A stretch of 64,000 nt of DNA from Escherichia phage 121Q. The notes below the pieces were generated by a model. It was not told the origin of the DNA. It was given only the letters and a program-made list of their open reading frames with translations, and searched no databases. The stretch lies in the sequence record NC_025447.1. The stretch is one strand, 5' to 3'. Shown one piece after another: positions 13,901 to 63,604 of this stretch (position 1 is its first letter; the number at the start of each line of letters is the position of its first letter). The translations under genes and the position numbers were made by a program.

Positions 13901-14346
13901 GTTACGAAAGTGCAATCAAGAAAGCAAATGATATTCTAAAAGTTGTTCAGTTCTTCAAAGAAAATCCTGAATACTTAGCTGATGAAAACCATGATCACGA
14001 TGAGAGATTGAGACGAAAAATTGTCGCTTTATTTGACACTAATGCGGATAATTATAGTCTAATTGAGTTAGCATACGATTATATTTCATTGAACCGAAAC
14101 GGACATTTAGTTAATATAGAAAGACATGCGAGTGAAGAATCTTTTAAAATTTCAGACATTTTATCCCTGAGTACTGAAGAAGGGTACTTCCAGGGTAGTA
14201 CTGTTTATGAACAAGGAACACTTGACAATCTATGCACATTCAGTGTAATATATCAGAAATCAGTACTGGATGTATTTTATCTTGACACTGCTGAACTGGA
14301 TACACTAATCAATTTTGTTACTACTGAAGAGGCCACATTTGAGTGA
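13897..14346 (+). CDS. FQxS-core family protein
   Basis: core TEEGYFQGSTVYE. Confidence 0.6.
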   Translation: MSYESAIKKANDILKVVQFFKENPEYLADENHDHDERLRRKIVALFDTNADNYSLIELAYDYISLNRNGHLVNIERHASEESFKISDILSLSTEEGYFQGSTVYEQGTLDNLCTFSVIYQKSVLDVFYLDTAELDTLINFVTTEEATFE

Positions 14347-14879: not shown

Positions 14880-15075
14880 TCGAATTGAATACATGAGAAC
14901 TGTGAGTGCAGTGTGGGACATATGGTTCACTACTAAACCAAAAATGGATTACCATGACTTTAAGCTCTTGTTCTTCGTTGGCTCTAACAAACAGGATGTT
15001 GCAATGAAGGGTTATATTCAGCACTTACAGGAACTAATACAGAAGAGGGTTAATGAAAATAATAGACCAAGATGA
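14857..15075 (+). CDS. LGT-QE family small protein
   Basis: core LFFVGSNKQDVAMKGYIQHL. Confidence 0.55.
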   Translation: MKYSKTFNRIEYMRTVSAVWDIWFTTKPKMDYHDFKLLFFVGSNKQDVAMKGYIQHLQELIQKRVNENNRPR

Positions 15076-15244
15076 TATTGCTAAACTATTCAATATATAT
15101 TCTACTAGAATGATGCAAACAGACTCATATAGTACTGAATTCAAAGAGTTGAAAGTACTGATGTACTTGGGAACCCAATATCAGGAACAAGTTATTTTGG
15201 AATATATTAATTCGTTGAAGAAGGATATCCGTTATGTACGATGA
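15053..15244 (+). CDS. LGT-QE family small protein
   Basis: core LMYLGTQYQEQVILEYINSL. Confidence 0.6.
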   Translation: MKIIDQDDIAKLFNIYSTRMMQTDSYSTEFKELKVLMYLGTQYQEQVILEYINSLKKDIRYVR

Positions 15245-15794
15245 TTTAGATCTTGCGTTTGAACGTATGGTAATTTTAATGCAATGTGCAGAAATGCATG
15301 AAACAATCCGTCGCACCAAAGGGATTGAATATACAAGTAAACTATTCTCATACGAAAGTCGTCGAGGGATGGATCATTTTTACTGCACTGATTGTTCAAA
15401 GTTTTCAGTACTGAAATATTATCATCCTACTGTTTCCAATAATAGTTTAATATCCACATATGACGGTGATCTGTTTAGTGTAATGTATGACACATTACAT
15501 CCATCAATTTCAATCTATAAAGATTGCGATAGTAGTTTATCGTATATAATTGAAGATTACTTATCTCCTAATACTGAAGAGAATATTTTTCAGAACAGTG
15601 TGTTGCATGATGAATTAAGTATAAAATGCATCTATATGTTCAATAAGTTAAAAGAGTACGCCGATAATAATTACTTCATTGATGATTTAGCGGTATTGTC
15701 TGTTTCCGTTTTTAATACAAATGATATTGATATGAAATACTATAATGAGATTTGTAAAGTACATCATATGTATAAGGAACTATTATGTCAATAA
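15234..15794 (+). CDS. FQxS-core family protein
   Basis: core TEENIFQNSVLHD. Confidence 0.6.
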   Translation: MYDDLDLAFERMVILMQCAEMHETIRRTKGIEYTSKLFSYESRRGMDHFYCTDCSKFSVLKYYHPTVSNNSLISTYDGDLFSVMYDTLHPSISIYKDCDSSLSYIIEDYLSPNTEENIFQNSVLHDELSIKCIYMFNKLKEYADNNYFIDDLAVLSVSVFNTNDIDMKYYNEICKVHHMYKELLCQ

Positions 15795-16387
15795 ATGCAA
15801 ATAAATGTTGTAGTGCAGATGTGCATTTGTTTTTTAAGAAATTAGCAAATGATATTATATATATGCAGGAAATGATTTATCACAAACGAGCGGATTTAGA
15901 AAAAGCATTAGTACAGTTCTCATTTATGCTTGATGGTGATATATTTCTAGAGAGTGATGCATTGCAAATAGTATTAGACAAAAATGCTAAAAGATTTTTA
16001 TTTCATATAGATAATAAATTATGTTCCTCCGTATGTCGTACTTTTTATAATCGTGATTCGGACTTATATCAATTCCTTTATTCTAAAGGTGCAGTAGAAG
16101 CATCATATGGTGATGGTTATGCCCTAGGAAAGAGTATTCCATTTATGAAATCATTTAAAATAGAACACATCAGTACTGATGAAGATGCAATGTTCACAAA
16201 TGATATAACTATGGGACGTGAAGATGCAATGCGATATATTACAAATTCTATGCATACATTCTTTCAACGAACAGAATTTGATAATGTATATATATCAAAT
16301 GTAAATATTTTCAATGACCTGTGTCAGTACTTGAGAAGTGTTTGTAATTTCGATGAAAGCTATTGTAAGCTATATACTGAGGTATAA
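15785..16387 (+). CDS. hypothetical protein (possible divergent FQxS member)
   Basis: 200 aa ORF; only a weak HTFFQRTEFD match to the family core. Confidence 0.45.
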   Translation: MSINANKCCSADVHLFFKKLANDIIYMQEMIYHKRADLEKALVQFSFMLDGDIFLESDALQIVLDKNAKRFLFHIDNKLCSSVCRTFYNRDSDLYQFLYSKGAVEASYGDGYALGKSIPFMKSFKIEHISTDEDAMFTNDITMGREDAMRYITNSMHTFFQRTEFDNVYISNVNIFNDLCQYLRSVCNFDESYCKLYTEV

Positions 16388-16392
16388 AACAA

Positions 16393-16755
16393 ATGAACAC
16401 ATTAAGTATTACATACTATACAACTAAAAAATTAGTTACTTGTTTAATATCTTTGAAGACAAACCATGATGATATGTTTGATATGGCTGCATATGAATTA
16501 GAATTATCAGAAGATGGCTTCAAGAGCTATGAAGTATATAGCTATGTCCGTGAAGATGTAATTGACACTACACTAATGCAAGAGGATGAGTTATTCCAAG
16601 AAAGTTTAGTATGGGATAATAAGTACGATTGTAACTTTGATTTCTTATGTTTAATCCAGAAAGAAATGAAAAGAATCTTTGATAATTATCCAATCAAACG
16701 TTTCAGTACTGCACCTGAGCAATATAAAAGGATTATATTCACCTATGAAGATTGA
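16393..16755 (+). CDS. FQxS-core family protein
   Basis: core QEDELFQESLVWD. Confidence 0.6.
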   Translation: MNTLSITYYTTKKLVTCLISLKTNHDDMFDMAAYELELSEDGFKSYEVYSYVREDVIDTTLMQEDELFQESLVWDNKYDCNFDFLCLIQKEMKRIFDNYPIKRFSTAPEQYKRIIFTYED

Positions 16756-17122
16756 ATTTGAAGTTATTACATATAGTATAGGTGATGGTATCCGTTGCTA
16801 TGTACAAGCAAGGCATATGGTTCCTGATGATAAACTGTCACCCAAAAGCTTCTGTATCACACAAGATCTCTTAGATATCAACGGAGAGTACAAGTACATA
16901 TATTATCTTACTAAGGGTTATTGTAGTACACGTGGTTTTAATATTGTAGCTGTTTCTAGAGATGAAATTGATGATTTAACTGAGTACGGGGAAGAAGAGA
17001 TGTTCCAGTACAGTACTGTTTTTAATGAACTGGATGTGTTTCTGTTACGAAAAATACAACACATTATGCAAGAATGTTTGCATCATAAGAGAGGTATGGT
17101 ATGCGACGTGAATCTGAATTAG
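16745..17122 (+). CDS. FQxS-core family protein
   Basis: ATG at 16745 overlapping upstream stop; core GEEEMFQYSTVFN. Confidence 0.6.
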   Translation: MKIEFEVITYSIGDGIRCYVQARHMVPDDKLSPKSFCITQDLLDINGEYKYIYYLTKGYCSTRGFNIVAVSRDEIDDLTEYGEEEMFQYSTVFNELDVFLLRKIQHIMQECLHHKRGMVCDVNLN

Positions 17123-17442
17123 TTAAAGTAATGTACGCTACTCATATTAAACTACTACTTGTTAAATTTGATTATAATAAAAAACATAATGATTTCTATA
17201 CTTTAATTCGTGATGAAAATACATTCTCCTTGCGATGCAACAATATACCCTTGAAGATAAATGATTTTACTTCACTTGACGAGGGGGAATTATTTCAAGA
17301 ATCATTAGTTTTTAATAGTAATATAAAAATTGATATAGAAGTTATTAAAAAATACCAGATTCTATTGAACAAAATTATGAATTGTTATCCATGTGAAATA
17401 GGTGGTCATATGCAGTTCAAATCAAAAATGTATGAATTATGA
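17101..17442 (+). CDS. FQxS-core family protein
   Basis: core DEGELFQESLVFN. Confidence 0.6.
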   Translation: MRRESELVKVMYATHIKLLLVKFDYNKKHNDFYTLIRDENTFSLRCNNIPLKINDFTSLDEGELFQESLVFNSNIKIDIEVIKKYQILLNKIMNCYPCEIGGHMQFKSKMYEL

Positions 17443-17449
17443 GGTTTAT

Positions 17450-17986
17450 ATGTTAGATAAAAAAATGAACTCTGGAACCCAATATAATCATCTTAAGTTG
17501 GATACATTCGAATCAGCTATCAGTACAGCACAAGATATAATTGATATTATCAAGTTCATTAAAGAAGATAAGTTCAAATGTTTGAAAATACTAAATCGTT
17601 CAATGTACCGTGATAAAAATATTCATGTATCAGTACGTAGACCGAAAGATCAAGAAAGTGGGAGAGATTTCTATAACAACAGTGAGCAGTTCGAATGTGA
17701 ATATGATCCAGAATTTAGAGGTGGTTTCATGTGTTACTGTATGAAGGATACCTCACACATTGAGATACGTTCATCGAAAGGTGGCATACGTACATTAGAG
17801 TTTATTGATATAGTTTTAAATCAGGAATACTACTTTCAACTATCATTATTGTTTCCTGCATACGATTTAGGAGTTCTATTCATGTATAAGTACTTTCATG
17901 AGCACTGGAATGAAGACTTCTATCTGGACTTAGAAGATTACCAATTAGTTTGGAAAGAAATGGTAGAACTTCGCAACCCATCTTGA
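17450..17986 (+). CDS. FQxS-core family protein
   Basis: ATG at 17450 after GAGG; core NQEYYFQLSLLFP. Confidence 0.6.
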   Translation: MLDKKMNSGTQYNHLKLDTFESAISTAQDIIDIIKFIKEDKFKCLKILNRSMYRDKNIHVSVRRPKDQESGRDFYNNSEQFECEYDPEFRGGFMCYCMKDTSHIEIRSSKGGIRTLEFIDIVLNQEYYFQLSLLFPAYDLGVLFMYKYFHEHWNEDFYLDLEDYQLVWKEMVELRNPS

Positions 17987-18012
17987 CACCCTCCGATTCT
18001 TTGTGATATAAT
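17983..18012 (+). promoter_or_regulatory. sigma70-like promoter with extended -10
   Basis: TTGACA, 18 nt, TGaTATAAT; sits in the gap before the 18046 gene. Confidence 0.55.
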
Positions 18013-18045
18013 CTCTTTATATTAATTGTAAAGGGTTATATCACA

Positions 18046-18522
18046 ATGTCCAAAGACCTATCATTTAGCAATGCACAAAAAATAGCAAAAGACATTATCA
18101 GGGTTTATAAATTCCTTACAAATGTTACTGAAGATTTTTCCGTGGGCAAACATACAGTCAAAAAACGAAATGGATACCTTTCCTTTATGGATGGGTTACT
18201 CTATAGTTCAGATGAATCAACTTGTAGTATTAGAGTGCTTGATGAAGTACCAAGTGGTGATTTTATTTCATACCATTTCCCAAGTTCAGATAATTTCAAA
18301 TACTACAATCATCATCTTATAAATGAAGGATTTGATACGGCTGAAATTAACACTGAAGAAGAGTTCTTCCAGTACAGTACTGTGTATCCAGAGAGGATTG
18401 TTTTCAGTTCAGTGATTTACACTGCCCTTAAAAATGAACTAAATTCAGATAGTGATCATTTCTACTTGGACCTGAACAATCTCGATTGTATTATTGAGTA
18501 CCTGGAGAAAAATGGTTTATGA
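18046..18522 (+). CDS. FQxS-core family protein
   Basis: core TEEEFFQYSTVYP. Confidence 0.65.
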   Translation: MSKDLSFSNAQKIAKDIIRVYKFLTNVTEDFSVGKHTVKKRNGYLSFMDGLLYSSDESTCSIRVLDEVPSGDFISYHFPSSDNFKYYNHHLINEGFDTAEINTEEEFFQYSTVYPERIVFSSVIYTALKNELNSDSDHFYLDLNNLDCIIEYLEKNGL

Positions 18523-19013
18523 TTACTACAGAATATGATTACGATGGTGTTTTAGAATTTGCAGACAATATCTATCGCATTGCAAAGGAGTTCAGAAGTC
18601 CTGACCCATTTGGTGGTATGTTCGAATACGATGAGTTTAGTTCATCCAAAGGAAGACTTGCGTTTACTAATGAAAGAGGTAATCAAATCTATGCCGAGTA
18701 CTTTGATGACAATGACTTTCATTACAAAGCCGGATACATTTCATATTGCCCTGGGTCTGATTTGAAGATTAATATTGACAATTATAGAGAAGCAGTATTT
18801 GTTAAGTATGATGATTTAGTGTTCATGTCAGAGGAAATGTACTTTCAGGGTTCTTGTATTCATGATGTAAAAGTACTTAATGCTATGTTATTTTATGGTG
18901 CACTACTTCATCATTACAAATACAAACAACGATTCTTTTTAGATTTAGTAGTATACTATAAATGCGTGGATTATTTGAATGCAAAATACGACAACAATTC
19001 AGTACATGACTGA
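18519..19013 (+). CDS. FQxS-core family protein
   Basis: core SEEMYFQGSCIHD. Confidence 0.6.
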   Translation: MITTEYDYDGVLEFADNIYRIAKEFRSPDPFGGMFEYDEFSSSKGRLAFTNERGNQIYAEYFDDNDFHYKAGYISYCPGSDLKINIDNYREAVFVKYDDLVFMSEEMYFQGSCIHDVKVLNAMLFYGALLHHYKYKQRFFLDLVVYYKCVDYLNAKYDNNSVHD

Positions 19014-19341
19014 TGGTACTGAATACTTTGTTTCAAGATATGTAATCAGACACAATCATTATGTAACCTATATTCCAGAATACAATCAATTTTATATCCA
19101 GATTTATCAAGACAATGGAAAGATAAATGATATATATTCAGAAATAAAAATCCCTGATTATAGTACTTTATCAGAAGAGGAATTGTTTCAGCAGAGCACT
19201 ATCAGTACTGAAGATGTGTACAAAATAATGGAATACCAGAAGGTACTTAAATATTTTCATGAAGTACAGGATATACAAATAGATATTCTTACTGCGTGGA
19301 GTTATATCACACACGAGGTAAATTATGTTCGAAATGATTAA
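19006..19341 (+). CDS. FQxS-core family protein
   Basis: ATG at 19006 overlapping upstream stop; core SEEELFQQSTIST. Confidence 0.55.
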   Translation: MTDGTEYFVSRYVIRHNHYVTYIPEYNQFYIQIYQDNGKINDIYSEIKIPDYSTLSEEELFQQSTISTEDVYKIMEYQKVLKYFHEVQDIQIDILTAWSYITHEVNYVRND

Positions 19342-19738
19342 AATTATGCAACGATGTGTTGTTGACCAACACGGGATATATGGATATCGTTTAAGTGCTC
19401 CTATTGACAAAAATAAAACAACCTATGTAAGCTATAATGCTGTACAAGGATTTGATATATTCATTAGTACTAATTATCAAATCAATCAAGCTAAAGATGT
19501 GTCTATAATGACCCCTGATGAGTTATTTCAGTACAGCTTAGTCTTTCCTTCATGTATCGATTTACAACGTCTAGGAGCGATACAGAAGGTTTTACGCGAA
19601 CATAAAGTACAACCCAATAAAGTCACACACATTCCAGAAACAATCTTCAAAACCATAGAAGTAGAAACTCCTGATTATATGTTAAGTGATGATGAGTACT
19701 ACGAGAAACACTTCCCTGGTAAAGTTTGGAGAGATTGA
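19325..19738 (+). CDS. FQxS-core family protein
   Basis: core TPDELFQYSLVFP. Confidence 0.6.
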   Translation: MFEMIKIMQRCVVDQHGIYGYRLSAPIDKNKTTYVSYNAVQGFDIFISTNYQINQAKDVSIMTPDELFQYSLVFPSCIDLQRLGAIQKVLREHKVQPNKVTHIPETIFKTIEVETPDYMLSDDEYYEKHFPGKVWRD

Positions 19739-20229
19739 TGAACCGAAAGTACAGAGAAACTATGAAGTTCGCTAGGGAGTGTTTAGAAGTGTTTGAGTTC
19801 ATCAATGCTCATAAAGATTTACTCCATAGATACATTGCAATCAGTGAGACAGATGACCATAGGTACATATGTTCTCGAATTCAAGATAAGATATATAAGA
19901 TTGTGTTCTCGGAAACATACACAGATACATCTAATTCACTATATGATTTTGCACGTACTGATTACGTTTCATACAAATCTTGGTCTGATAGTATTAAAAT
20001 TGTGCACAAGCAAAATACATTTTATTCTTTTCTTACGGACATTTCCGAAGAAAGTTACTTTCAAAACAGTTTAATTTATACAGAAAAAGAACTCAAAATG
20101 TTATATATTATGTCGTACTTTAAAAAGTACTGCAAATTTAATACATTATCTTTTGAGATTTCTGCAATGAAAGTATTCATTAAAAATGTAAAAGAACTAA
20201 AGAGGGCTTTTAATGTACATAGAAAATGA
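19738..20229 (+). CDS. FQxS-core family protein
   Basis: ATGA overlap start at 19738; core SEESYFQNSLIYT. Confidence 0.6.
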   Translation: MNRKYRETMKFARECLEVFEFINAHKDLLHRYIAISETDDHRYICSRIQDKIYKIVFSETYTDTSNSLYDFARTDYVSYKSWSDSIKIVHKQNTFYSFLTDISEESYFQNSLIYTEKELKMLYIMSYFKKYCKFNTLSFEISAMKVFIKNVKELKRAFNVHRK

Positions 20230-36253: not shown

Positions 36254-36529
36254 ATGAATTATAAAGTTCTACAATATACATACAGTGTTTTGTTTGATTT
36301 ACATCACAATGGAAGATATCTCAATACAATACGAGAAAACACATTCACTCATACTATCTGGATTAATCACTTAATAATGATACGTGAATATTTTGTTAAT
36401 AGTGAGATAATCATTCGTGGTAAAAAACATAAGATAGAACAAGTTAATAGTTTTGGTGGTAAATTAGTACTATCATTTATAGATAGTAATACTAATGAAA
36501 GATATAGTATAGATTTGGTGGACATATGA
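36254..36529 (+). CDS. TYK-LYDL family small protein (tandem array 1/7)
   Basis: N-terminus MNYKVLQYTYSVLFDL; ~90 aa like its six neighbours. Confidence 0.55.
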   Translation: MNYKVLQYTYSVLFDLHHNGRYLNTIRENTFTHTIWINHLIMIREYFVNSEIIIRGKKHKIEQVNSFGGKLVLSFIDSNTNERYSIDLVDI

Positions 36530-36792
36530 ATTATAAAGATTTCCTACTAACATACAAGATTATTCGAGATTTAGCACACGACAATGATAGCCCTAGTCTA
36601 GAAGACACATGCACTGAAATGATTCATACGATTCGTGGTAAGATTAAAAAAAAATTCAGTACTGTTATTATTGGTGATGACCATGCAGAATTTTCTGATA
36701 TAATCATTAGACGTGATGGTAAAGTTGAGGTTCAGTACTACACTGATTTTGGATTTACCAGTATTCCGTTGGAGATATTCCCTTGGGATTAA
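36526..36792 (+). CDS. TYK-LYDL family small protein (2/7)
   Basis: N-terminus MNYKDFLLTYKIIRDL. Confidence 0.55.
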   Translation: MNYKDFLLTYKIIRDLAHDNDSPSLEDTCTEMIHTIRGKIKKKFSTVIIGDDHAEFSDIIIRRDGKVEVQYYTDFGFTSIPLEIFPWD

Positions 36793-37094
36793 ATTTAAAT
36801 GATATACAATTCACTTATAAGATCCTATATGATTTGTATGATGTATACCTTGTTAGTAACAAAATAGGTTCACATAACCCATACAAAGAACAACCATTTA
36901 TTGATTTATATATTGAGTACTTAGATTCAGTAGGTGAATATATAAAAAAGAATTACAGTACTTTTATCGACGGAAATGATATATTCGAGTTCTCTGGAGT
37001 TAAATCATACAATGGGATTATCCATGTTGAATTTCTTGAAATAACCGATAGGGGATTTATCGAGATTAAAGTTGTGAAGTTGGTGAATTTATAA
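36783..37094 (+). CDS. TYK-LYDL family small protein (3/7)
   Basis: LNDIQFTYKILYDLYD. Confidence 0.55.
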   Translation: MGLNLNDIQFTYKILYDLYDVYLVSNKIGSHNPYKEQPFIDLYIEYLDSVGEYIKKNYSTFIDGNDIFEFSGVKSYNGIIHVEFLEITDRGFIEIKVVKLVNL

Positions 37095-37104
37095 GAGGTT
37101 ACAT

Positions 37105-37416
37105 ATGTTATTAAATGATATACAATTCACATACAAATTTTTGTATATCCAATACGCTACGGTTGATGCTGGAGAATATCTCTACGGTGAAATCTATCGT
37201 TCGGTATGGATAAAGTTTTTGGATGAATTACATGAATATTACCATGATTTGTGTATAGTTCGTGATAATAAAATATACAAATTCCGCGATATTGTTAGTC
37301 ATAGCGGTAAGCTACGATTGGAATTAAGTACTGATAGTGATGTTGATTGGATTGGTGTAAATTTACTGGAGTTGGAGAATGAAAAACAACTTAAAGGAAA
37401 TACAAGTATTTTATAA
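37105..37416 (+). CDS. TYK-LYDL family small protein (4/7)
   Basis: MLLNDIQFTYKFLYIQY. Confidence 0.55.
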   Translation: MLLNDIQFTYKFLYIQYATVDAGEYLYGEIYRSVWIKFLDELHEYYHDLCIVRDNKIYKFRDIVSHSGKLRLELSTDSDVDWIGVNLLELENEKQLKGNTSIL

Positions 37417-37663
37417 ATTCTTATACTTGTCATATGTAAAAGATGAGTACTATGAAAGTGTGTATTATTTTTTATGGCAACATTACCGTACTATAGTAAG
37501 AGATTTATATATAGGAAAATCTATCATATCCAATGGTGAAAAATGTATATGTACTGATGTTGTTAGTTTTAATGGTTCTTTAACACTGTGTTTCAGATGC
37601 GATAATAATAGTGGGTCATTTTCATTAAACGTATATCAGTTAGAAGGAATAAATTTTGAATAA
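37379..37663 (+). CDS. TYK-LYDL family small protein (5/7)
   Basis: LKEIQVFYKFLYLSY; DLYIGKSIIS motif. Confidence 0.55.
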   Translation: MKNNLKEIQVFYKFLYLSYVKDEYYESVYYFLWQHYRTIVRDLYIGKSIISNGEKCICTDVVSFNGSLTLCFRCDNNSGSFSLNVYQLEGINFE

Positions 37664-54363: not shown

Positions 54364-55059
54364 ATGGTTGAACAATTCATGTTTGGTGGTTATGCTAATG
54401 GCGAAGTACGTAACATTTCTATTCCTTACGTAGTTGAGAAAGTTAATGGTTCAGAACGTACATATGATCTAGCATCTCGTATGATGCAAGACCGTATCAT
54501 TTTCCTTGATACTGATTTCAATGATCAAATGGCACATATCATCAAACAACAATTGGTGTGGTTAGACTCACAAGGTGATTCCCCTATTACATTCTACATT
54601 AGTTCACCAGGTGGTTCAGTACACGCAGGTTTGGGTATTGCAGACGTTGCTAAGTCTTGTATTTCCCCAATCCGCACTGTAGTTATGGGTTATGCGGCAT
54701 CAATGGGTTGCTATACACAATCTGTTATTGGAACTAAAGGTTTCCGTTTAGGTGGTAAACGTTCATACTTCATGTGTCACCAAGTAAGTTCTGGTACACA
54801 AGGTCTAATTACAGACCAGAAGATTTCCCTACAACATTCTGATGCACTGAATACATTGTTGACCAAAGAAATTGCAGAAGCAGTAGGCGTATCACATGAA
54901 CAATTACTAAAAGATGCTGACCGCGATTTGTGGTTAAATGCAGAAGAAGCACTTGAATATGGTGAACATGGTTTCATTGATGGTATTATTCTTGGACCAC
55001 GTAACGAAGAAGGCAAGTACTTAGTTAAGCGTCGCGGCGGTGTGGAAGAGTGGGTGTAA
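54364..55059 (+). CDS. clpP: ClpP-family serine protease subunit
   Basis: DRIIFLD, ISSPGGSV and MGYAASMG (active-site Ser context); His in FMCHQ. Confidence 0.8.
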   Translation: MVEQFMFGGYANGEVRNISIPYVVEKVNGSERTYDLASRMMQDRIIFLDTDFNDQMAHIIKQQLVWLDSQGDSPITFYISSPGGSVHAGLGIADVAKSCISPIRTVVMGYAASMGCYTQSVIGTKGFRLGGKRSYFMCHQVSSGTQGLITDQKISLQHSDALNTLLTKEIAEAVGVSHEQLLKDADRDLWLNAEEALEYGEHGFIDGIILGPRNEEGKYLVKRRGGVEEWV

Positions 55060-55107
55060 GATAGATTTTGATGCCTCAATATGGGGCATCATCTTTGTGG
55101 AGATTAT

Positions 55108-55398
55108 ATGAAAGTACTAGTACGTAATAATACGGAAGTAGCAAATGTATTAGAAGATTCCGATTTTATTAATGTTGCGTTCGATCAAATTAGTGCAGTA
55201 GCACTTGAGTTAAAAAATGTGGATGAATCTGAGCGTGTACTAAATGGTTTTGCAATTGTACTTGAATTAATGAAAGAAGTACTAATTAAAAAGAACATTA
55301 ATCCAGTTGATGCGGTTCAACATGCAGAAGCTGTGCGTAAAGAACACGGTACATTCTCTGACAAAAAATACATTCAAACTGATGAGGTAAAAGAATAA
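55108..55398 (+). CDS. hypothetical small protein
   Basis: ATG at 55108 after GGAG; alternative upstream start at 55081. Confidence 0.45.
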   Translation: MKVLVRNNTEVANVLEDSDFINVAFDQISAVALELKNVDESERVLNGFAIVLELMKEVLIKKNINPVDAVQHAEAVRKEHGTFSDKKYIQTDEVKE

Positions 55399-55399
55399 T

Positions 55400-55846
55400 A
55401 TGTCCAATGCACAATATAAAGATGGTTATGACGCATACAAAGCAAAAGTAGTTCTAAGTGCTGAACAGCTAAAAATGCAGCATCCATTATATCGTCAGGG
55501 CTATCGTGCAGCACAAGCAGAAGCAATGAAGAAAAATAATGTAACTTTCCCTACTACGCTATATGATATTCCTAAACGTCCACACATTTTTAAAGCTGAA
55601 TGGACTGATATTATGGCAGCGACAAAGCGTCCACGTTTTGCTAAATTACACACCGATGAAGGTCGCTGGTTGCTAATGGGGATTATGAAAGCAGTTGAGA
55701 ATCAATCTCATAAGATTGTTCGTTATAAAGATGTTGTTGCTATGGTTGATAAAGCATTTGACCTTGTACTTCAATATGGTTATGATGAAGGTGTACTAAC
55801 TGTTTCTGATTGTGAAAAATATCAGTACACCCCATATCAAAAATAA
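55400..55846 (+). CDS. hypothetical protein
   Basis: 148 aa ORF. Confidence 0.5.
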   Translation: MSNAQYKDGYDAYKAKVVLSAEQLKMQHPLYRQGYRAAQAEAMKKNNVTFPTTLYDIPKRPHIFKAEWTDIMAATKRPRFAKLHTDEGRWLLMGIMKAVENQSHKIVRYKDVVAMVDKAFDLVLQYGYDEGVLTVSDCEKYQYTPYQK

Positions 55847-55856
55847 TATTACAAAT

Positions 55857-55884
55857 AGGAATCCAGTACTGGATTCCTCTTTTT
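55857..55884 (+). terminator. rho-independent terminator
   Basis: Perfect 22-bp palindrome AGGAATCCAGTACTGGATTCCT followed by CTTTTT. Confidence 0.65.
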
Positions 55885-55964
55885 ATTGCTGTATATCAAT
55901 TTTCATCGATCAAAAAATGATCTATATAAGCTAAATACCCAAGGAATCATTGTTACTAGGGTAG

Positions 55965-56519
55965 GTGAATATGCAGCAATATAATTTAACTGAAGAACAA
56001 AGTGATATTTTTTATCATCATATGTTTTTAATTGATGAGTTTGCTTTGAAAATTAATTCTGAAGCAATTGATATATTGAAGAAATGGTATTCATGTTATA
56101 ATAAAAACAAAAAGTGGTATTGGTTTAATAGAAATTTAAAGTCATTTTTAAAAACAATAACACAAGTTGATAGTGTAGAAATGATACATAGTTCAATTGG
56201 ATATAGTTATTTGACTAAACACAATAATACTATGATGTTATCCGGTTTTAAAGTTGAAAGAATTTCAAAGCTTACAGGTTTATCATTAAAAACAATTTTA
56301 TATGATATAGAAAAGATTTGGAAAACTATAGAATTCATGCACAAAAATATGTCATTCATATATAGAAATTATGATATATTCACTGAGGTACGTCAATATC
56401 ATAATAAACCTTATGTATTGAATGAAAAGTACTATAATCATATGGAAGTTTGTTCTAAACTCGTTGATGATTGGAATCTAGAGGGACATAATGAAATACA
56501 CACACCTAAGTATAGATGA
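55965..56519 (+). CDS. hypothetical protein
   Basis: 184 aa ORF, very AT-rich. Confidence 0.45.
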   Translation: MNMQQYNLTEEQSDIFYHHMFLIDEFALKINSEAIDILKKWYSCYNKNKKWYWFNRNLKSFLKTITQVDSVEMIHSSIGYSYLTKHNNTMMLSGFKVERISKLTGLSLKTILYDIEKIWKTIEFMHKNMSFIYRNYDIFTEVRQYHNKPYVLNEKYYNHMEVCSKLVDDWNLEGHNEIHTPKYR

Positions 56520-57015
56520 TACTAATATCTGGTTAGATAACATAATCAAGACATTAGAATTAATTAAACTTACATTACAAAAAACTACTGATATTGAAAT
56601 TAATATTAAACAAGAAATATTAAACTATTATCATAGAAACAAATATAGCACGTTTATCTCTAAATTAATTTATGGATTATATGATATTGAAGATATTTGC
56701 ATCGGTTACAGTACTGGTATTTGCTTCACTGTTAATGGTTTAAAAAATGATTTAAATTTCAGACTTTCCGATGAAGAGCAAGATTTTCGTAGATTTTGTG
56801 ATAATATTATGGATACAGACAAAATTACATTTGTGATTGAATTAAATCAAACATGGTCTACATATGCAGATAAACCATTTGAAATTAATGAAACAGATGT
56901 GTTAAACTATATTCGAGTTATGAAAATTCATGATTTGTGTAAAAACGCATTGTTAAGTATTGGAGCTTATAATGAAACATACGACTTGGTTGAAGATAGC
57001 AGAAGTAGTTGCTGA
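56491..57015 (+). CDS. hypothetical protein
   Basis: 174 aa ORF. Confidence 0.45.
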   Translation: MKYTHLSIDDTNIWLDNIIKTLELIKLTLQKTTDIEINIKQEILNYYHRNKYSTFISKLIYGLYDIEDICIGYSTGICFTVNGLKNDLNFRLSDEEQDFRRFCDNIMDTDKITFVIELNQTWSTYADKPFEINETDVLNYIRVMKIHDLCKNALLSIGAYNETYDLVEDSRSSC

Positions 57016-57451
57016 GGAAAGTAAATGTATTTCACAAAAAGTTGGTTGTGTTATTGTTAAAAATAATAGAGTATTGAGTACTGGATACAATGGAACGCCA
57101 TCTAAGCAGCCAAACTGTTGTGATGTAAATCAACATTTAGTGAACGATGGTCGTTTTCAAGACTGGGTTGATGATGCAGCAAAACATGAACATCATGAGT
57201 GGAGTAATATTCATGAGATCCATGCAGAGATGAACGCTTTACTGTATAGTTCTCCTACTGAACGCCAAGGAGCAACTCTTTACACAACTCTACAACCATG
57301 CTATACTTGTTCTAAGTTAATCGCAGGTAGTGGGATTACCCGTGTAATTTATCACAAAAGTTATCCACGAACACCACCTGAAGCGATTAAAGTACTGGAA
57401 GATGCTGGGATTATTGTTAACTGCATTTATGACAAGGGTATGAATCAATGA
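56972..57451 (+). CDS. cd: dCMP deaminase
   Basis: Zinc-binding HAEMNAL and PCYTCSKLI motifs; GGAG RBS before ATG at 56972. Confidence 0.85.
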   Translation: MKHTTWLKIAEVVAEESKCISQKVGCVIVKNNRVLSTGYNGTPSKQPNCCDVNQHLVNDGRFQDWVDDAAKHEHHEWSNIHEIHAEMNALLYSSPTERQGATLYTTLQPCYTCSKLIAGSGITRVIYHKSYPRTPPEAIKVLEDAGIIVNCIYDKGMNQ

Positions 57452-57702
57452 CATTTATGATTGTTGGATTTCTATCAATATTAGTATTATTTTTTATAAC
57501 AGTAATGTTTGTTATTGATGATAATGACATTTCTCAACGAAACTATGAAGTGCGTTTTTCTGCACAAAACAACAAGTACTACATTGTAAACTGTATACAC
57601 CGTAGTGAGAAAAGGGTAACAAGTAGATTTGGATTTACCATTTATTATAAAGACCGAGTAGAAGCTGACATGATTTGTCAGAAGCTTAATACTGTAGAAT
57701 AA
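57448..57702 (+). CDS. small membrane protein
   Basis: 84 aa; N-terminal hydrophobic stretch MIVGFLSILVLFFITVMFVI. Confidence 0.5.
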   Translation: MTFMIVGFLSILVLFFITVMFVIDDNDISQRNYEVRFSAQNNKYYIVNCIHRSEKRVTSRFGFTIYYKDRVEADMICQKLNTVE

Positions 57703-57731
57703 AAAAAAAGGAGCCACAAGGCTCCTTTTTT
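57701..57731. terminator. bidirectional rho-independent terminator
   Basis: A9-GGAGCC-acaa-GGCTCC-T6 between convergent genes. Confidence 0.7.
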
Positions 57732-57732
57732 G

Positions 57733-58110
57733 TTAACCAGGGATGTTACAATAATACAAATCCCAAGGGTGATATTTCATTTCTCCAGTACTCAATTTAA
57801 TTTTATGAAACTGGAATGATTCGGCAAATGCACTATCATCAATCTTAATACAAAAAGTATTTTTTGCTAAAGTTGGTGCAATCTCTAGTGCAGTTTTAGT
57901 TGCATCTAATCTGATTTTATCTTTATCAAAACTTGTTATAGTTACAAAACGATAAACATTAAAATCAGTGTCGATAAGATCGTAAACACAACTAGAACGT
58001 TGATTAAAGATGTTCAAGTTATATTTCAATTCACCGTTTATATTAGCGGCGGTTACACAAAAGCCGCCGATATTGAATGGTAATTTACCTTGTGCTGCTA
58101 TAGCTTTCAT
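57733..58110 (-). CDS. hypothetical protein (antisense island, gene 2)
   Basis: 125 aa minus-strand ORF with AGAGGAAA RBS; N-terminus QGKLPFNIGGFCVTAANINGE is paralogous to the upstream small ORF. Confidence 0.55.
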   Translation of the reverse strand: MKAIAAQGKLPFNIGGFCVTAANINGELKYNLNIFNQRSSCVYDLIDTDFNVYRFVTITSFDKDKIRLDATKTALEIAPTLAKNTFCIKIDDSAFAESFQFHKIKLSTGEMKYHPWDLYYCNIPG

Positions 58111-58238
58111 ATTTTATTTCCTCTTATTAATAAACAACTACTTTTACAGATTGTTGTACCTTTTATATTTACACCGTCAACTAAATATCCACCTAAAGTG
58201 AATGGAAATTGGTCTTGTCCTGCGATTGGTTCCCCCAT
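58107..58238 (-). CDS. small protein (43 aa), paralog of the N-terminus of the downstream gene
   Basis: Hand translation MGEPIAGQDQFPFTLGGYLVDGVNIKGTT...; AAGGAG RBS 8 nt upstream; stop overlaps next ATG. Confidence 0.4.
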   Translation of the reverse strand: MGEPIAGQDQFPFTLGGYLVDGVNIKGTTICKSSCLLIRGNKI

Positions 58239-58357
58239 TAAGGGCACTCCTTATAAAAAAGCTTTACATTTGGTATGGGTTTGTGATAGAATCTTCACAG
58301 TGATTGTACTAAGGGGATTATCAGATGAGGGAAATTTGAGTTAAGTACAGAAAAAGT

Positions 58358-58386
58358 TTGACTTAAGTGTTTAAGTACTATATTAT
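58358..58386 (+). promoter_or_regulatory. sigma70-like promoter
   Basis: TTGACT, 17 nt, TATTAT upstream of the 58420 gene. Confidence 0.5.
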
Positions 58387-58419
58387 TTATATCTTCCTAA
58401 CCAAAATTAAGGATTTGTT

Positions 58420-59028
58420 ATGAAAAGACTATGGCTTGAGGTAGTACAAGCAGTAATGCTTCTGATGTTGATAAATTTTCCAGCCAGTGCTGGTGTTGAA
58501 AGTAAAAATGTGATAAAGTACAATCCTGAAACACGTAATGTATATTTCATCTCAGATATTACGGATGGGTCACTAAAGCGTATGATGGAGTTGTATGATA
58601 AAGAACACTATGATACCATTACCATCACATCGCCAGGTGGTGATTTTGATGCTGGGATTAAAATGGCAAACTTCGTTAGAGACAATGGTATAAATTTAAT
58701 TGTTTCTAGGTATTGCAACTCAGCATGTACTGTGGTATTCTTCAGTGTAGCTTTTGAAAAGCGATACATGATAAATCGCTCAGTACTGGGACTTCATAAC
58801 ATTTCTATTAAAAGTAATGTTAAAGACGGTGATAATTCTTTTGTATCAGTTAGGCAGCTATCAACTTTTACTGAAGAAATGGCAACTAAAGTAGGTTTTC
58901 TATTTACACTATATTCTGCAAATGGAATTCCACCAGACGTTCTATATAAAGTTAGCCGTTCGCGTGGTGAAGATGTTGTAATATTAACAAAACCAGAACT
59001 GGTTTTTTACGGTTCAGTCAAACAATAA
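58420..59028 (+). CDS. secreted ClpP/crotonase-fold-like protein (putative periplasmic protease-like)
   Basis: N-terminal signal-peptide-like LLMLINFPASAG; TITSPGGDFDAG resembles the ClpP-fold S-P-G-G loop. Confidence 0.4.
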   Translation: MKRLWLEVVQAVMLLMLINFPASAGVESKNVIKYNPETRNVYFISDITDGSLKRMMELYDKEHYDTITITSPGGDFDAGIKMANFVRDNGINLIVSRYCNSACTVVFFSVAFEKRYMINRSVLGLHNISIKSNVKDGDNSFVSVRQLSTFTEEMATKVGFLFTLYSANGIPPDVLYKVSRSRGEDVVILTKPELVFYGSVKQ

Positions 59029-59098
59029 AAATAATTAAAATAACAGGATGATTATGATGTACTTCCTTTGTTATTAATTATATTGAGATTATATAACT

Positions 59099-59359
59099 AT
59101 GACAAACATCCAAAATTTGACATCTATTATTTTTTATGCTACAGTAGTGATGTATATTACTGTACTTTTCCTAACAGTTTTCATTTACAAAGATTACAAA
59201 AATGGCTTTATTGATAACACAACAATGAAGTTCAATTCAAAGTTTGAAGCAATAATTTATTATGTTCTGGCAACATCATATTTGGTGTGTCTAATGTTAT
59301 TAGGTACATTGATTTATATTTTATATACAACTTTATTTGCAATTGGAGCTATTTTATGA
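59099..59359 (+). CDS. small membrane protein
   Basis: 86 aa with two long hydrophobic segments. Confidence 0.5.
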   Translation: MTNIQNLTSIIFYATVVMYITVLFLTVFIYKDYKNGFIDNTTMKFNSKFEAIIYYVLATSYLVCLMLLGTLIYILYTTLFAIGAIL

Positions 59360-59952
59360 CATGTATCATTGCACACACTGATGGTGTAACTTCTTTTATT
59401 GCAGGGGACAAACTGGGAAGTAACGGGTTCACAAAGTCCGTTCAAACTGAGCCTAAAGTATTTGAGAAAGAATTCATTAAAATCAATGATGATGCTGGTT
59501 TGACCCGTACAAAAGAAATTATGGCGATTGGTTACACCACATCATTCCGTATGGGTCAACTTCTTACTTACAGTTTGAATCTACCACAGCAAGATGCAAA
59601 TGAGACGTTTCCACAGTACTTAGTACTGAAAGTTATTCCTATTATTCGTCAAATGTTCAAAGAGGAATGGGGTTCTCGTGATCCTTCACAAGAAGTAGGT
59701 GGTGGACAGTTCATCATTCTTCACAATCATACAATTTATGAAGTTCAAGAAGATTTTTCAGTTCTTCAACCGAAAACACGAATCACCGCCGTAGGTAGCG
59801 GAACATATCATGCTATTGCAGCAATGCAAGCATATATTGAAGTTGAAAATGAATCAAAAGTGCCACTACATGAACGCATCAAATCAATTTTTAAAATTGT
59901 CAGTGATAATGTAACTAGTGTAAGTGCCGAGTTTGATGTTTTAAAGTATTAA
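59356..59952 (+). CDS. putative Ntn-hydrolase / HslV-like protein
   Basis: GGAG RBS; N-terminus MTCIIAHTDGVTSFIAGDKLGSNG resembles the HslV/proteasome-beta N-terminal Thr plus AGD pattern; weak. Confidence 0.35.
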   Translation: MTCIIAHTDGVTSFIAGDKLGSNGFTKSVQTEPKVFEKEFIKINDDAGLTRTKEIMAIGYTTSFRMGQLLTYSLNLPQQDANETFPQYLVLKVIPIIRQMFKEEWGSRDPSQEVGGGQFIILHNHTIYEVQEDFSVLQPKTRITAVGSGTYHAIAAMQAYIEVENESKVPLHERIKSIFKIVSDNVTSVSAEFDVLKY

Positions 59953-60174: not shown

Positions 60175-60927
60175 ATGATATCAGAAAAATTTATAAGTAA
60201 TGAAGGTAAAAAAAGATTACTGATTATATCTGGTGCAGGACTTTCAGTCGAAAGTGGGATGGAACCTTTTCGATTTGATGATGGTTTGTGGGATACATTT
60301 AAAATTAATGATGTATGTAACATTGCTAGTTTAACTACAAAATATCATGTTGTTCATTCTTTCTATAATACATTGCGTGTAAAATTGGGACAATGCGAAC
60401 CAAATGCAATGCATTATTTTATAAAATCGTTAGAAGAACAATATGGTGATTGCTTCCTTCATATGACTTCTAACATGGACGATCTTTATACTCGTATTGG
60501 TGGTCATGAGCTTAAACTTCATGGAAACTTGTGCGAAGTTATTGAAAATTATAGTATCAATTCTGATGATTATAATGTTATTAACTGCGGATACGAACCA
60601 TACATACCAAAACATGATGTTTTTGCTAAACCAAATGTGGTAATGATTGGAGAATATCATCGTTATGTTGATGGTATACGCTTACCAATTTACGAAGAAC
60701 GAAATAATGTGTTGAAATCTCTTAATGAAAATGATACAGTTATTGTAATTGGTAGTAGCGATACAGTACTAGTATGGTCGAGATTAGCAGCAGCATTACC
60801 ATGTTATAGTGTTAATGTTAACATTCGTAAAAATGATAATGATTTTTTGTTTAATGAAAAAGTTATCAAGCCAGCAACCAAAGCAATACCACATCTAGAG
60901 ACTATAATTAAGGAACGTATGAAATGA
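60175..60927 (+). CDS. Sir2-family protein (NAD-dependent deacylase / ADP-ribosyltransferase fold)
   Basis: GAGLSVESGMEPFR, TSNMDDLY, catalytic HG (KLHGNL), KPNVVMIGE and VIGSS motifs in sirtuin order. Confidence 0.8.
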   Translation: MISEKFISNEGKKRLLIISGAGLSVESGMEPFRFDDGLWDTFKINDVCNIASLTTKYHVVHSFYNTLRVKLGQCEPNAMHYFIKSLEEQYGDCFLHMTSNMDDLYTRIGGHELKLHGNLCEVIENYSINSDDYNVINCGYEPYIPKHDVFAKPNVVMIGEYHRYVDGIRLPIYEERNNVLKSLNENDTVIVIGSSDTVLVWSRLAAALPCYSVNVNIRKNDNDFLFNEKVIKPATKAIPHLETIIKERMK

Positions 60928-61475
60928 GTGTTAAAGAAGTTCCCTTTGGTGAATATGGCTCACGTGCAAATTTTGTATTTTGTTATTTCTTTGCAAGAAA
61001 ATGTAACCCTTACAAAAACTATGAGTTGAATGATATACCAGAAGTAAATTTAGTTTTACTACAATTACGATGGGATGGTCTTCTTGGTGGATGTGGTGGA
61101 ACCGTAGAAAGTACTGATATCTCACTAGAAGATGCGTTGCGTCGTGAAGTTCAAGAAGAAATGGATTACAATATTTTTGTTTCCCATCTTCGACCACTCA
61201 AAACTTTTGAAATTTACCCAGGTGCAAACAGTCATAGTTTTAGCTATGAAGTAAGCTATGACGAGTTGAAACACATTAGAGATGGATACACTAATGCTAA
61301 ACATGCGAGTGCTGAAGTTGCTGGTGTAAATTTATGTCATATTTCTCGTTATTCTAAGGGACAAAATCGAGAAGCGGGATATAATAATCTTATGACACAG
61401 AACTTCATCGGTACAGCAAAACAAGAATTGGAGTATCTGGTTCAAAAAGAAAACTTACTAATTAGTTATCTATAG
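60924..61475 (+). CDS. Nudix hydrolase-like protein
   Basis: GGTVESTDISLEDALRREVQEEMD approximates the Nudix box (compare MutT GGKIEMGETPEQAVVRELQEEVG) with a one-residue insertion. Confidence 0.55.
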   Translation: MSVKEVPFGEYGSRANFVFCYFFARKCNPYKNYELNDIPEVNLVLLQLRWDGLLGGCGGTVESTDISLEDALRREVQEEMDYNIFVSHLRPLKTFEIYPGANSHSFSYEVSYDELKHIRDGYTNAKHASAEVAGVNLCHISRYSKGQNREAGYNNLMTQNFIGTAKQELEYLVQKENLLISYL

Positions 61476-61484
61476 GAGTTTAAC

Positions 61485-61805
61485 ATGTCTTACGCAATGT
61501 TTTTGGATGATATTCGTGATGCAAATCTATATTATCCAAACCAAGATATGGTGGTATGTCGTGACTTTAAAAGTGCATGTGAATATGTTATTGAAAATGG
61601 AATTCCAGCATTTGTATCATTCGACCATGACTTGGGTGATGTGAGCGAAGACGAAAAGACTGGATATTCTTTTGCTAAGTTTCTTATTGATTATATGTTT
61701 GATAATAATATTAAAGAACCGTTTGAGTACTTTGTTCACAGTAGTAATCCTGTTGGTAAAATTAATATTGAAACATACTTAAACAATGGATTTAACGCAT
61801 TATGA
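61485..61805 (+). CDS. hypothetical protein with acidic FLDDIRD / SFDHDLGD motifs
   Basis: 106 aa; GGAG RBS; motif spacing reminiscent of receiver-like domains, unverified. Confidence 0.45.
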   Translation: MSYAMFLDDIRDANLYYPNQDMVVCRDFKSACEYVIENGIPAFVSFDHDLGDVSEDEKTGYSFAKFLIDYMFDNNIKEPFEYFVHSSNPVGKINIETYLNNGFNAL

Positions 61806-62104
61806 TTCAAACACACATCAAAAGTCTTATTTGTACTGTTCTGTTAGGTGCAGGAGTTCTTTGGTTCGGACAGTATCACGAGAACACTAAGCGTACCAAC
61901 ATTCACTACAATACCGCAGAAGTTGTTAGTTTAGGACAATGTAGCGAGTCCAAATGTTCATTCATGTATAAAACCCAAAGTGGTGAAGTACGTAATGGAC
62001 TATCAAGAGAACCAGTTTCAATTGGTCAACTTGTTTACCAGGAGTGCTGGGAAGAAAAGGTTCGAGGTTCACGTTGCTATGTTGAATACGAACCAAATAT
62101 GTAA
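61802..62104 (+). CDS. hypothetical protein with N-terminal TM segment
   Basis: 100 aa; hydrophobic LICTVLLGAGVLWF. Confidence 0.45.
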   Translation: MIQTHIKSLICTVLLGAGVLWFGQYHENTKRTNIHYNTAEVVSLGQCSESKCSFMYKTQSGEVRNGLSREPVSIGQLVYQECWEEKVRGSRCYVEYEPNM

Positions 62105-62164
62105 TAATCCGAGTCAATAACATTAGTCGAGTACAAGGATGTACTCATAACTCAAGGATGTTTT

Positions 62165-63604
62165 ATGAAAAAATATACAATTGACACAAACGTACTACTA
62201 TCTGACCCTAATGCATCTATTGCTTTTGATGGTGCTGCAATCATTCTACCATTTACAGTACTGGAAGAATTAGATTCGATTAAGAGTCGTAATGTAGATG
62301 TTTCACGCGATGCTCGTGTTGCTATTCGTAACATTGAAGCAATTATTGCAGATGCATCACATGACGAGATTAGTAGTACTGGTGTTAATATTGCTGATGT
62401 TCATACCAATATGAATCCTGATAGCAAATTGTTTGTTATTACAAACGAAGAAGCTGAGGCACTAATTCGTACTAAAGGTACAGAAGAGAAAGTTCAAACC
62501 CTTCTCAAAAGTACTGTACCTGATGATAAAATCATTCTGGTAGCTTTAGCAACAGAATCAGTACTGGTAACTCGTGATATCAACATGCGTATCAAAGCAC
62601 TAAGTTATGGTGTCGAGGTACAAGATTATCGCCATGATATTGTTATTGGTGATAGTGATTTGATTCACATTGGTCAACACCATCTGGAAATCAATTTTTG
62701 GGAAGTATACAGCAACTTAACCAATACTAATATTCAATCCGAACAAGTTGGTCGTCGTTTGTATCATTACATTTCTAAAAGCTTGATTGAACATCTGCTT
62801 CCACAAAATCTATGCATCGGTGATTATCTATATGATGATGCTGACGTATTATTTGTGTACGAAGGACAATCAGCAATTGAGGAAGATGATGGAACACTAA
62901 CACCAGAAGATATTTTGGTATTCCAAGACATTGGACAATCAGTGTCTTTACGTGCTAAAGTATGGGATATTAAAGCAAAGAATATCCAACAAGCACTCGC
63001 CATCAACAGTATTCTCGATCCTGATGTACATCTAACAGTACTGCTAGGTTCTGCTGGTACTGGTAAAACACTAATTACAATTGCTACTGCATTAGAATTA
63101 GTACTGGAAAAACGTAAATACGACCGAATCATCTTCTCTAAAACTCAAGACTCACAGTTTGAAGATATTGGTTTCTTGCCAGGTTCAGAAGCAGAAAAAG
63201 TGATTCCATTCTGTGGAGCCGCGATTGATGCGTTAGAGTTTCTTCATAAAGATGATGCCAATCCACAAGGTAGTATTGAAGAGATTATGAAACGTAATGT
63301 TATTCAATTTAAAGCACTAAACTTTGTACGTGGACGTTCATTCACCAACACTATTCTAGTAGTTGATGAATTCCAAAACATTACACCTGCACAAGCAAAA
63401 ACCATCTTGACACGAGCAGGGTTAAACTGTAAAGTAGTAATTATGGGTAACTTGAGTCAGATTGACAGTAAGTTTATTAGTCCTGTTAACAGTGGTTTGA
63501 CATATGTAACTGAGAAGTTTAAAGACTGGGCAGGTTGTCGTGTCATCGAACTAGAAGGTGTTGTTCGTTCACCACTGGCTGAATTTGCTGAAGAAAATAT
63601 GTAA
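62165..63604 (+). CDS. phoH: PhoH-like ATPase with N-terminal PIN domain
   Basis: PIN-like YTIDTNVLLSDPNA; Walker A LGSAGTGKT; Walker B VVDEFQN. Confidence 0.8.
   Translation: MKKYTIDTNVLLSDPNASIAFDGAAIILPFTVLEELDSIKSRNVDVSRDARVAIRNIEAIIADASHDEISSTGVNIADVHTNMNPDSKLFVITNEEAEALIRTKGTEEKVQTLLKSTVPDDKIILVALATESVLVTRDINMRIKALSYGVEVQDYRHDIVIGDSDLIHIGQHHLEINFWEVYSNLTNTNIQSEQVGRRLYHYISKSLIEHLLPQNLCIGDYLYDDADVLFVYEGQSAIEEDDGTLTPEDILVFQDIGQSVSLRAKVWDIKAKNIQQALAINSILDPDVHLTVLLGSAGTGKTLITIATALELVLEKRKYDRIIFSKTQDSQFEDIGFLPGSEAEKVIPFCGAAIDALEFLHKDDANPQGSIEEIMKRNVIQFKALNFVRGRSFTNTILVVDEFQNITPAQAKTILTRAGLNCKVVIMGNLSQIDSKFISPVNSGLTYVTEKFKDWAGCRVIELEGVVRSPLAEFAEENM

Follow-up and report, generated by a model that had tools for sequence, protein, structure and literature searches.

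Three peptidase-fold genes in an Asteriusvirus-like jumbo coliphage: ClpP, a predicted exported ClpP-fold protein and a proteasome homolog

The locus and its relatives

We analysed a stretch of 64,000 nucleotides from Escherichia phage 121Q (NC_025447.1), below called the window. Positions 54,364 to 59,952 of the window contain three genes with peptidase folds (Table 1). The first encodes ClpP, the second a predicted exported protein with the ClpP fold, and the third an N-terminal-nucleophile (Ntn) hydrolase related to HslV and to the beta subunits of the proteasome, below called the proteasome homolog. All three open reading frames (ORFs) are present where an original prediction, made from the sequence alone, had placed them. 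When all ORFs of the window were searched, these were the only three peptidase genes.

The G+C content of the window is about 32%, and nearly all coding in the 64 kb is on one strand. The window belongs to an Asteriusvirus-like (Rak2-like) jumbo coliphage. The 6-kb region has 92-93% nucleotide identity with Asteriusvirus jumbo coliphages of 350-380 kb, among them G17, PBECO4, Sharanji and phAPEC6. In the records of JP4 and of PBECO4 (RefSeq) the names are 'head maturation protease', 'protease' and 'peptidase HslV family'; all three genes are already labelled as proteases in public records of related phages. The kinds of protein encoded here are known and annotated; the least explored of them is the exported ClpP-fold family. 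The virion proteome of phAPEC6 (62 proteins) contains neither ClpP, nor the exported protein, nor the proteasome homolog; the product of a neighbouring gene, gp347, was detected in it. No protein of the locus matched the PADLOC defence models.

ClpP

The ClpP protein matches Pfam family PF00574 over profile positions 2-179 of 182 (E 4e-41, 141.3 bits, cut-off 20.2). The top match among solved ClpP structures has E 1e-36, and the identity to E. coli ClpP is 36% over the whole length. Ser97, His122 and Asp171 (numbering of the mature E. coli protein) all have aligned counterparts, in the motifs AASMG, CHQ and DRD, and the oxyanion residues Gly68 and Met98 are retained. The ClpP assignment of the original prediction, and the Ser-His-Asp triad on which it was to be checked, are thus borne out. 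About 19 additional residues precede the conserved part, at the place where E. coli ClpP carries its propeptide. There is also a C-terminal tail of about 20 residues (approximately 210-231) that ends in LVKRRGGVEEWV and that E. coli ClpP does not have. This tail is kept from Asteriusvirus to RaK2, although the overall identity is only about 70%.

The ClpP models of NCBIfam (TIGR00493, NF001368) gave scores of 151.6 and 155.2 bits, with cut-offs of 308.6 and 249, respectively. Because these scores are below the equivalog and subfamily cut-offs, we call the protein divergent; its alignments and the intact triad nevertheless mark it as a genuine ClpP.

The ClpP proteins of JP4 and slurp01 are 100% identical to that of the window, and identities across Rak2-like phages are 45-75%. 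The counterpart in the diverged phage Turkey3 is 96% identical. The codon differences between the two comprise 75 synonymous and 9 amino-acid-changing ones, which indicates strong purifying selection.

A promoter of its own had also been proposed for this gene. A candidate sigma-70-type site is indeed present at the appropriate position, with both hexamers conserved in Turkey3. As a class, however, promoter-like matches show no enrichment in this AT-rich region (43 against an expected 38). Since Turkey3 has the same hexamers but a diverged spacer, the sequence comparison suggests that the site is a real host-type promoter.

The PHROG-based annotations of JP4, PBECO4 and RaK2 present the ClpP gene as the head-maturation (prohead) protease. 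Among the PHROG families it matches phrog_94 best, with E 5e-44; this family is named 'head maturation protease', and the public records carry the same name. However, the protein scores 155 bits over its whole length against a cellular ClpP model, and 51 bits against a ClpP-related head-maturation model. The gene is situated outside the head module, among genes for DNA ligase, phosphoesterase and dCMP deaminase. Further, PBECO4 and phAPEC6 have a dedicated Peptidase_S77 enzyme of the T4 gp21 type, encoded between the scaffold and portal genes and beside the major head gene (PMC7247149). In the virion proteome of phAPEC6 the S77 protease was detected and ClpP was absent. A prohead role for this gene is extremely improbable: ClpP is not the prohead protease, and the S77 enzyme encoded elsewhere in the genome fills that part.

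Candidate partners of ClpP

As the window covers only 64 kb, partner genes were searched for in the whole genome of the relative PBECO4. The product of gp539 is a Clp/Hsp100 protein of 762 residues with two AAA+ domains, which has 43% identity to E. coli ClpA along 732 residues. Its sequence SIGM aligns with the SIGL motif of ClpA, which we take to be the ClpP-docking loop. The product of gp457 (181 residues) contains a ClpS domain (24.7 bits, cut-off 23). No further Clp/Hsp100, ClpX or HslU homologs were found when E. coli ClpX, HslU, ClpA and ClpS were compared with all ORFs of PBECO4 and of the window. A tblastn search of phages with E. coli ClpX and HslU gave no Asteriusvirus genome among the matches listed, in agreement with the whole-genome search of PBECO4. 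The genes for the ClpA-like and ClpS-domain proteins are each more than 170 kb away from the ClpP gene, so that the Clp components are scattered and do not form an operon.

Because PBECO4 encodes a ClpA-like unfoldase and a ClpS-domain protein and no other unfoldase, a phage ClpAP(S) system is the most economical reading and the likeliest role of ClpP. ClpP would be an active cytoplasmic Ser-His-Asp enzyme, probably transcribed early by the host polymerase. It would provide the chamber in which proteins unfolded by the ClpA-like protein of the phage itself are degraded, with the phage ClpS-domain adaptor assisting. The assembled ClpAP(S) would unfold and degrade chosen host or phage proteins during infection.

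Besides the low NCBIfam scores of ClpP, two points count against this interpretation. Firstly, the ClpA-like and ClpS-domain genes are known from PBECO4 and not from the 64-kb window, and their presence in the phage is assumed from the nucleotide identity of about 93%. Secondly, phage ClpP carries the changes Y60T, F82S and L114G at positions that we take to belong to the docking pocket of E. coli ClpP. If so, they make pairing with any given unfoldase uncertain. The same changes could reflect co-adaptation of ClpP to the phage unfoldase.

Compared with bacterial ClpAP and ClpAPS, phage ClpP has in common the full-length match (36%), the triad, the oxyanion residues and the N-terminal extension. 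It differs in the scores below the equivalog cut-offs, in the presumed pocket positions and in the added C-terminal tail. Clp proteins have been described before in this group of phages. ClpA is present in most Rak2-like phages (Attai et al. 2018, PMC6102473), and ClpP, ClpA, ClpX or ClpS were recorded in jumbo phages (Iyer et al. 2021, PMC7824862). These proteins are of the same gene family and from the same phage group as ClpP of the window. ClpP, ClpA and ClpS have been suggested to act on host proteins or in assembly, with no experimental test in these papers, whose passages on Clp proteins do not discuss an exported ClpP-fold paralogue (PMC6102473, PMC7824862).

An alternative is that the main partners of phage ClpP are host ClpX or ClpA, or that it assembles together with host ClpP, and that it thereby redirects or blunts host proteolysis with no phage unfoldase involved. 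The likely host-type promoter implies that ClpP would be made while the host unfoldases are present, and patchily distributed jumbo-phage ClpP has been proposed to be deployed against the host (Iyer et al., PMC7824862). On the other hand, the same phage lineage encodes a ClpA-like unfoldase with a docking-type loop as well as a ClpS-domain protein. The substitutions at the presumed pocket positions would argue against a simple fit to the host loops. The conservation of ClpA in most Rak2-like phages, reported by Attai et al. (PMC6102473), points the same way. We consider dependence on host partners doubtful and prefer the phage ClpAP(S) system.

The predicted exported ClpP-fold protein

The second protein had been proposed, as a weak assignment, to be a secreted ClpP-like protein. 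At the level of the fold this is now well supported. The predicted structure has the ClpP/crotonase fold, its matches are to ClpP, and within that fold it is closest to ClpP. The protein matches phrog_26024 'protease' end to end. Eight residues are invariant in 22 family members with identity down to 21%: S71, G73, G74, C99, S101, C103, H126 and P171. The first three of them are within the motif TITSPGGDFDAG (residues 68-79). S101 and H126 align with the catalytic Ser and His of ClpP.

The N-terminus, consisting of MKR, a hydrophobic core and FPASA followed by G, resembles a cleavable signal peptide, in agreement with the original prediction. Signal-like N-termini, as judged by heuristic rules, are present in all 22 family members examined. 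Since C99 and C103 flank the candidate nucleophile S101 in a predicted exported protein, the two cysteines probably form a disulfide.

Thus the protein would be exported via Sec, and its signal peptide would be cut after Ala24. It would act in the periplasm as an ATP-independent serine peptidase of ClpP fold that uses the pair Ser101-His126, and would be directed at a protein of the envelope or periplasm. Known extracytoplasmic peptidases of this fold are SppA and NfeD (family S49), which act outside the cytoplasm with no need of ATP, as the phage protein would.

Several observations weigh against such an activity. The residue aligned with ClpP Asp171 is neither acidic nor conserved, so that the triad is incomplete. 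The Pfam PF00574 score, 16.7 bits, is under the cut-off of 20.2, and the family profile matches solved ClpP with E 0.018 only. The predicted export follows solely from hydropathy and cleavage-site rules. The protein could be catalytically different or inactive. It may even be no peptidase at all, and instead a binding, scaffold or other protein of the ClpP/crotonase fold. The missing acidic residue would agree with such a role, and the invariant Ser and His aligned with those of ClpP would agree with a peptidase; we regard the non-peptidase alternative as unlikely and retain the Ser/His peptidase as the preferred reading.

A direct search against solved structures gave only matches to GFP-like proteins (E 0.03 or worse). 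These matches were rejected as spurious, and the profile and fold results were preferred.

The distribution of the family has two levels. Close homologs are few: 14, all from Rak2-like phages or contigs. Among cultured phages the gene occurs in the Rak2-like group only (47 records). A profile search of 1.8 billion cluster representatives gave 2718 relatives. These are mostly exported proteins of 230-290 residues with no Pfam model, and have in common the N-terminal 130 residues. The cluster names of the distant relatives contained no informative label, and the neighbourhood of a relative in Ferrimonas gave no functional clue.

The exported protein is 50% identical to its counterpart in Turkey3, whereas the adjacent genes have 85-96% protein identity. 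This indicates faster local evolution or replacement of the gene, as could be expected for a protein that interacts with the host.

The proteasome homolog

The third protein begins with MTCIIA. The start codon ATG at 59356 overlaps the preceding stop codon (ATGA) and has a GGAG motif upstream. It is favoured over an upstream GTG because none of the 34 aligned homologs departs from M1 or T2; the N-terminal threonine sought in support of the original prediction is therefore present throughout. The other invariant positions are Asp18, Lys34 and G-x-G at 147-149, and Thr2 would become Thr1 after removal of Met. The Turkey3 counterpart has 85% protein identity. Codon comparisons gave 61-70 synonymous against 17-29 amino-acid-changing differences, showing purifying selection.

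The structural model (pLDDT 93) has four helices, including the helix at 85-105. It matches HslV and BPH (Foldseek E 3e-10, TM 0.6-0.7), and the fold also matches 20S beta subunits. The family profile matches HslV first (E 2e-9), followed by 20S beta subunits and BPH. Hence structure prediction placed neither the second nor the third protein in an unrelated fold. The protein has a Thr nucleophile, the equivalents of Asp17 and Lys33 and the proteasome-beta fold, the features of group I proteasome-like Ntn hydrolases (Fuchs et al. 2021).

The fold of the weak HslV/proteasome-beta assignment made originally has been upheld, but 'HslV-like' is too specific. HslV is the top match among profiles and solved structures, and the N-terminal Thr and the G-S-G motif of the two align. 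However, the identity to E. coli HslV is about 21%, and the HslV equivalog models TIGR03692 and NF003964 were not passed (scores of 18.3 and 19.2 bits, cut-offs of 157.75 and 137, respectively). The loop that follows helix 2 exceeds that of HslV by 5-8 residues, and no HslU homolog is encoded by PBECO4 or by the window ORFs. Such long loops have been tied to unfoldase-independent homologs (Fuchs et al., PMC8665760).

We surveyed 80 viral and 80 bacterial loci containing the proteasome homolog. No HslU, ClpX or ClpA homologs were found within 6-10 kb in any of these loci, and the bacterial neighbourhoods gave no functional clue.

The family is widespread. It was observed in 195 cultured phages, including T5-like phages of Salmonella and E. 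coli and phages of Vibrio and Aeromonas, in at least 594 viral contigs, and in genomes of 218 bacterial species, many of them Actinobacteria, others Myxococcota and Proteobacteria. This distribution, together with the presence of four helices and the absence of a propeptide, agrees with the published description of the AAH group (Fuchs, Alva and Lupas 2021, PMC8665760), which makes AAH the best fit for the proteasome homolog. AAH are described as compact subunits with no propeptide, with equivalents of Thr1, Asp17 and Lys33 and helices H1-H4, from many phages, Actinobacteria and Proteobacteria (PMC8665760); the phage protein has the same features. The Asteriusvirus proteins differ by an extra hairpin, an insertion of about 15 residues that follows the Lys34 strand. 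Membership in the PPH group was rejected, as PPH are about 140 residues long and lack helix H2 (PMC8665760), whereas the phage protein has 198 residues and the helix at 85-105.

The proteasome homolog would act as a threonine peptidase of proteasome type and AAH kind, with Thr1 exposed, and with no dedicated unfoldase. It could still use host HslU, which would count against this interpretation. In that case it would replace or supplement host HslV, forming a hybrid HslUV with altered specificity, driven by host HslU. HslV is the top match by both sequence and structure, the phage has no HslU of its own, and E. coli has one. The low identity to E. coli HslV, the failed equivalog models and the longer loop after helix 2 do not favour a hybrid. 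Moreover, a Val of the phage protein is aligned with HslV Lys28, presumably a contact for the HslU C-terminus. The family is also found in Actinobacteria, a phylum for which no HslV is marked in Table 1 of PMC8665760. A hybrid HslUV therefore seems a minor possibility, and action with no dedicated unfoldase is preferred.

The gene has also been considered as a candidate prohead protease. This idea came from a single 128-kb metagenomic phage contig, in which the proteasome homolog overlaps the stop codon of a gene of the Gp23-like major-capsid type (L007:5090-6555), unlike the other contexts. It was rejected, as the contexts are mostly nucleotide-metabolism, NAD and ligase genes, and as 7 of the 80 viral loci have a neighbour family that, from its sequence, resembles the HK97-type prohead protease.

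Gene order and neighbouring features

Could the three genes form one co-functioning proteolytic module? They are situated on the same strand within 5.6 kb. By a rough estimate, the chance that three of four peptidase genes of a genome of about 348 kb fall within 5.6 kb is of the order of 0.003. The synteny of ClpP and the exported protein is kept from Asteriusvirus to RaK2, and in one unrelated phage contig of 120 kb a ClpP-like gene directly adjoins a proteasome homolog. This one contig suggested that the proteasome homolog and ClpP might be regularly paired. The idea was rejected: a ClpP-like gene is within 10 kb of the proteasome homolog in only 5 of the 80 viral loci, and neither HslU nor ClpX is found there.

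Other features of the locus also argue against a module. ClpP and the exported protein have separate promoter-like elements, both conserved in Turkey3, and the genes are separated by terminator-like hairpins and by a virion gene on the opposite strand. The predicted compartments differ, one protein being exported and two cytoplasmic. Identities to Turkey3 diverge sharply: 96% for ClpP, 85% for the proteasome homolog and 50% for the exported protein.

The gene order in RaK2 is ligase, ClpP, dCMP deaminase, the opposite-strand virion gene and the exported protein. RaK2 has no proteasome homolog at this site. The slot of the small membrane gene and the proteasome homolog is occupied in RaK2 by NMNAT, HNH and NAMPT genes (NAD salvage). 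The proteasome homolog thus occupies a variable slot.

Because of the separate transcription units, the different predicted compartments and the variable slot, the three genes are probably not one module; we rate joint function as highly unlikely. Their proximity seems to reflect a region of accessory genes.

Table 1. Coordinates of the features of the locus (positions in the window) and of candidate partner genes in the PBECO4 genome
Feature	Coordinates	Strand	Basis
Sigma-70-type promoter-like site, TGGACA-16 nt-TATAAT, upstream TG; 34 nt 5' of the ClpP start codon	54302-54329	+	11/12 consensus positions
ClpP, family S14 proteolytic subunit, 231 aa	54364-55059	+	Sequence and triad evidence
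Terminator-like hairpin, weak T-run, directly 3' of ClpP	55069-55091	+	Consensus scan only
Promoter-like site, TTGACT-17 nt-TATTAT, 5' of the exported ClpP-fold gene	58358-58386	+	Scan; -35 and -10 blocks conserved in Turkey3
Predicted exported ClpP-fold Ser/His protein, 202 aa; signal peptide predicted at residues 1-24	58420-59028	+	Family, alignment, structure, N-terminus
Small membrane protein, 86 aa, 2-3 hydrophobic spans; stop codon overlaps next start (ATGA)	59099-59359	+	ORF, hydropathy
Proteasome-beta/HslV-fold Ntn hydrolase, 198 aa	59356-59952	+	Family, alignment, structure, distribution
ClpA-like unfoldase gene (gp539), PBECO4 NC_027364.1	330788-333076	-	ClpA similarity
ClpS-domain gene (gp457), PBECO4 NC_027364.1	249684-250229		ClpS domain match

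The small membrane protein gene that precedes the proteasome homolog is conserved in Asteriusvirus, being present in JP4 and Turkey3. Its product has no Pfam or PHROG match, and the gene was not seen beside the proteasome homolog in other phages.

The only minus-strand gene of the region is at 57733-58110. Its counterpart in phAPEC6, gp347, was detected in the virion with a peptide coverage of 75%. This gene is followed by a strong GC-rich hairpin (57704-57731) with a 12-bp stem and flanking runs of A and T, which could terminate transcription in both directions.

Directly downstream of the proteasome homolog (60175-63604, plus strand) are genes for a Sir2-like deacetylase, a Nudix hydrolase and a PhoH-like protein. 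In unrelated large phages, too, the proteasome homolog is repeatedly found near genes of these kinds (NAD metabolism, PhoH, ligase, dCMP deaminase).

Elsewhere in the window, 771-20229 and 36254-37663 (plus strand) contain tandem families of small paralogous genes, with nine members of about 113-141 residues, eight of about 146-167 and four of about 91-103.

Discussion

The best joint explanation of the data is that the three peptidase genes at this locus of an Asteriusvirus-like jumbo phage are independent and that each product acts in its own way, and we consider this explanation probable. That the phage brings its own proteolytic equipment, as originally suggested, is supported, also by the ClpA-like and ClpS-domain genes of PBECO4; the three genes of the locus, however, are probably not one machinery.

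A bolder and more tentative possibility, which we hold to be on the whole improbable, goes further for two of the genes. The phage would possess an orthogonal Clp system, in which its own ClpP, with a remodelled pocket and tail, is served only by the phage ClpA-like and ClpS-like proteins. In addition, an exported Ser/His peptidase clamped by a disulfide would cut envelope or periplasmic proteins of the host. If true, this would be the first lead to the function of a family of exported ClpP-like proteins that has thousands of uncharacterised members.

As it stands, the analysis mostly confirms and tidies automatic annotations. The label 'head maturation protease' of the ClpP gene is amended, and the 'HslV family' label of the proteasome homolog is refined.

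If the reading of three independent peptidase genes is true, Rak2-like jumbo phages carry a layered degradation toolkit, consisting of ClpAP(S), a proteasome homolog that acts by itself, an exported enzyme of ClpP fold and the usual prohead protease. They would then be tractable E. coli models for the ways in which viruses reprogramme bacterial proteolysis, for the roles of orphan proteasome homologs of the AAH type, and for the role of the large exported ClpP-fold family.

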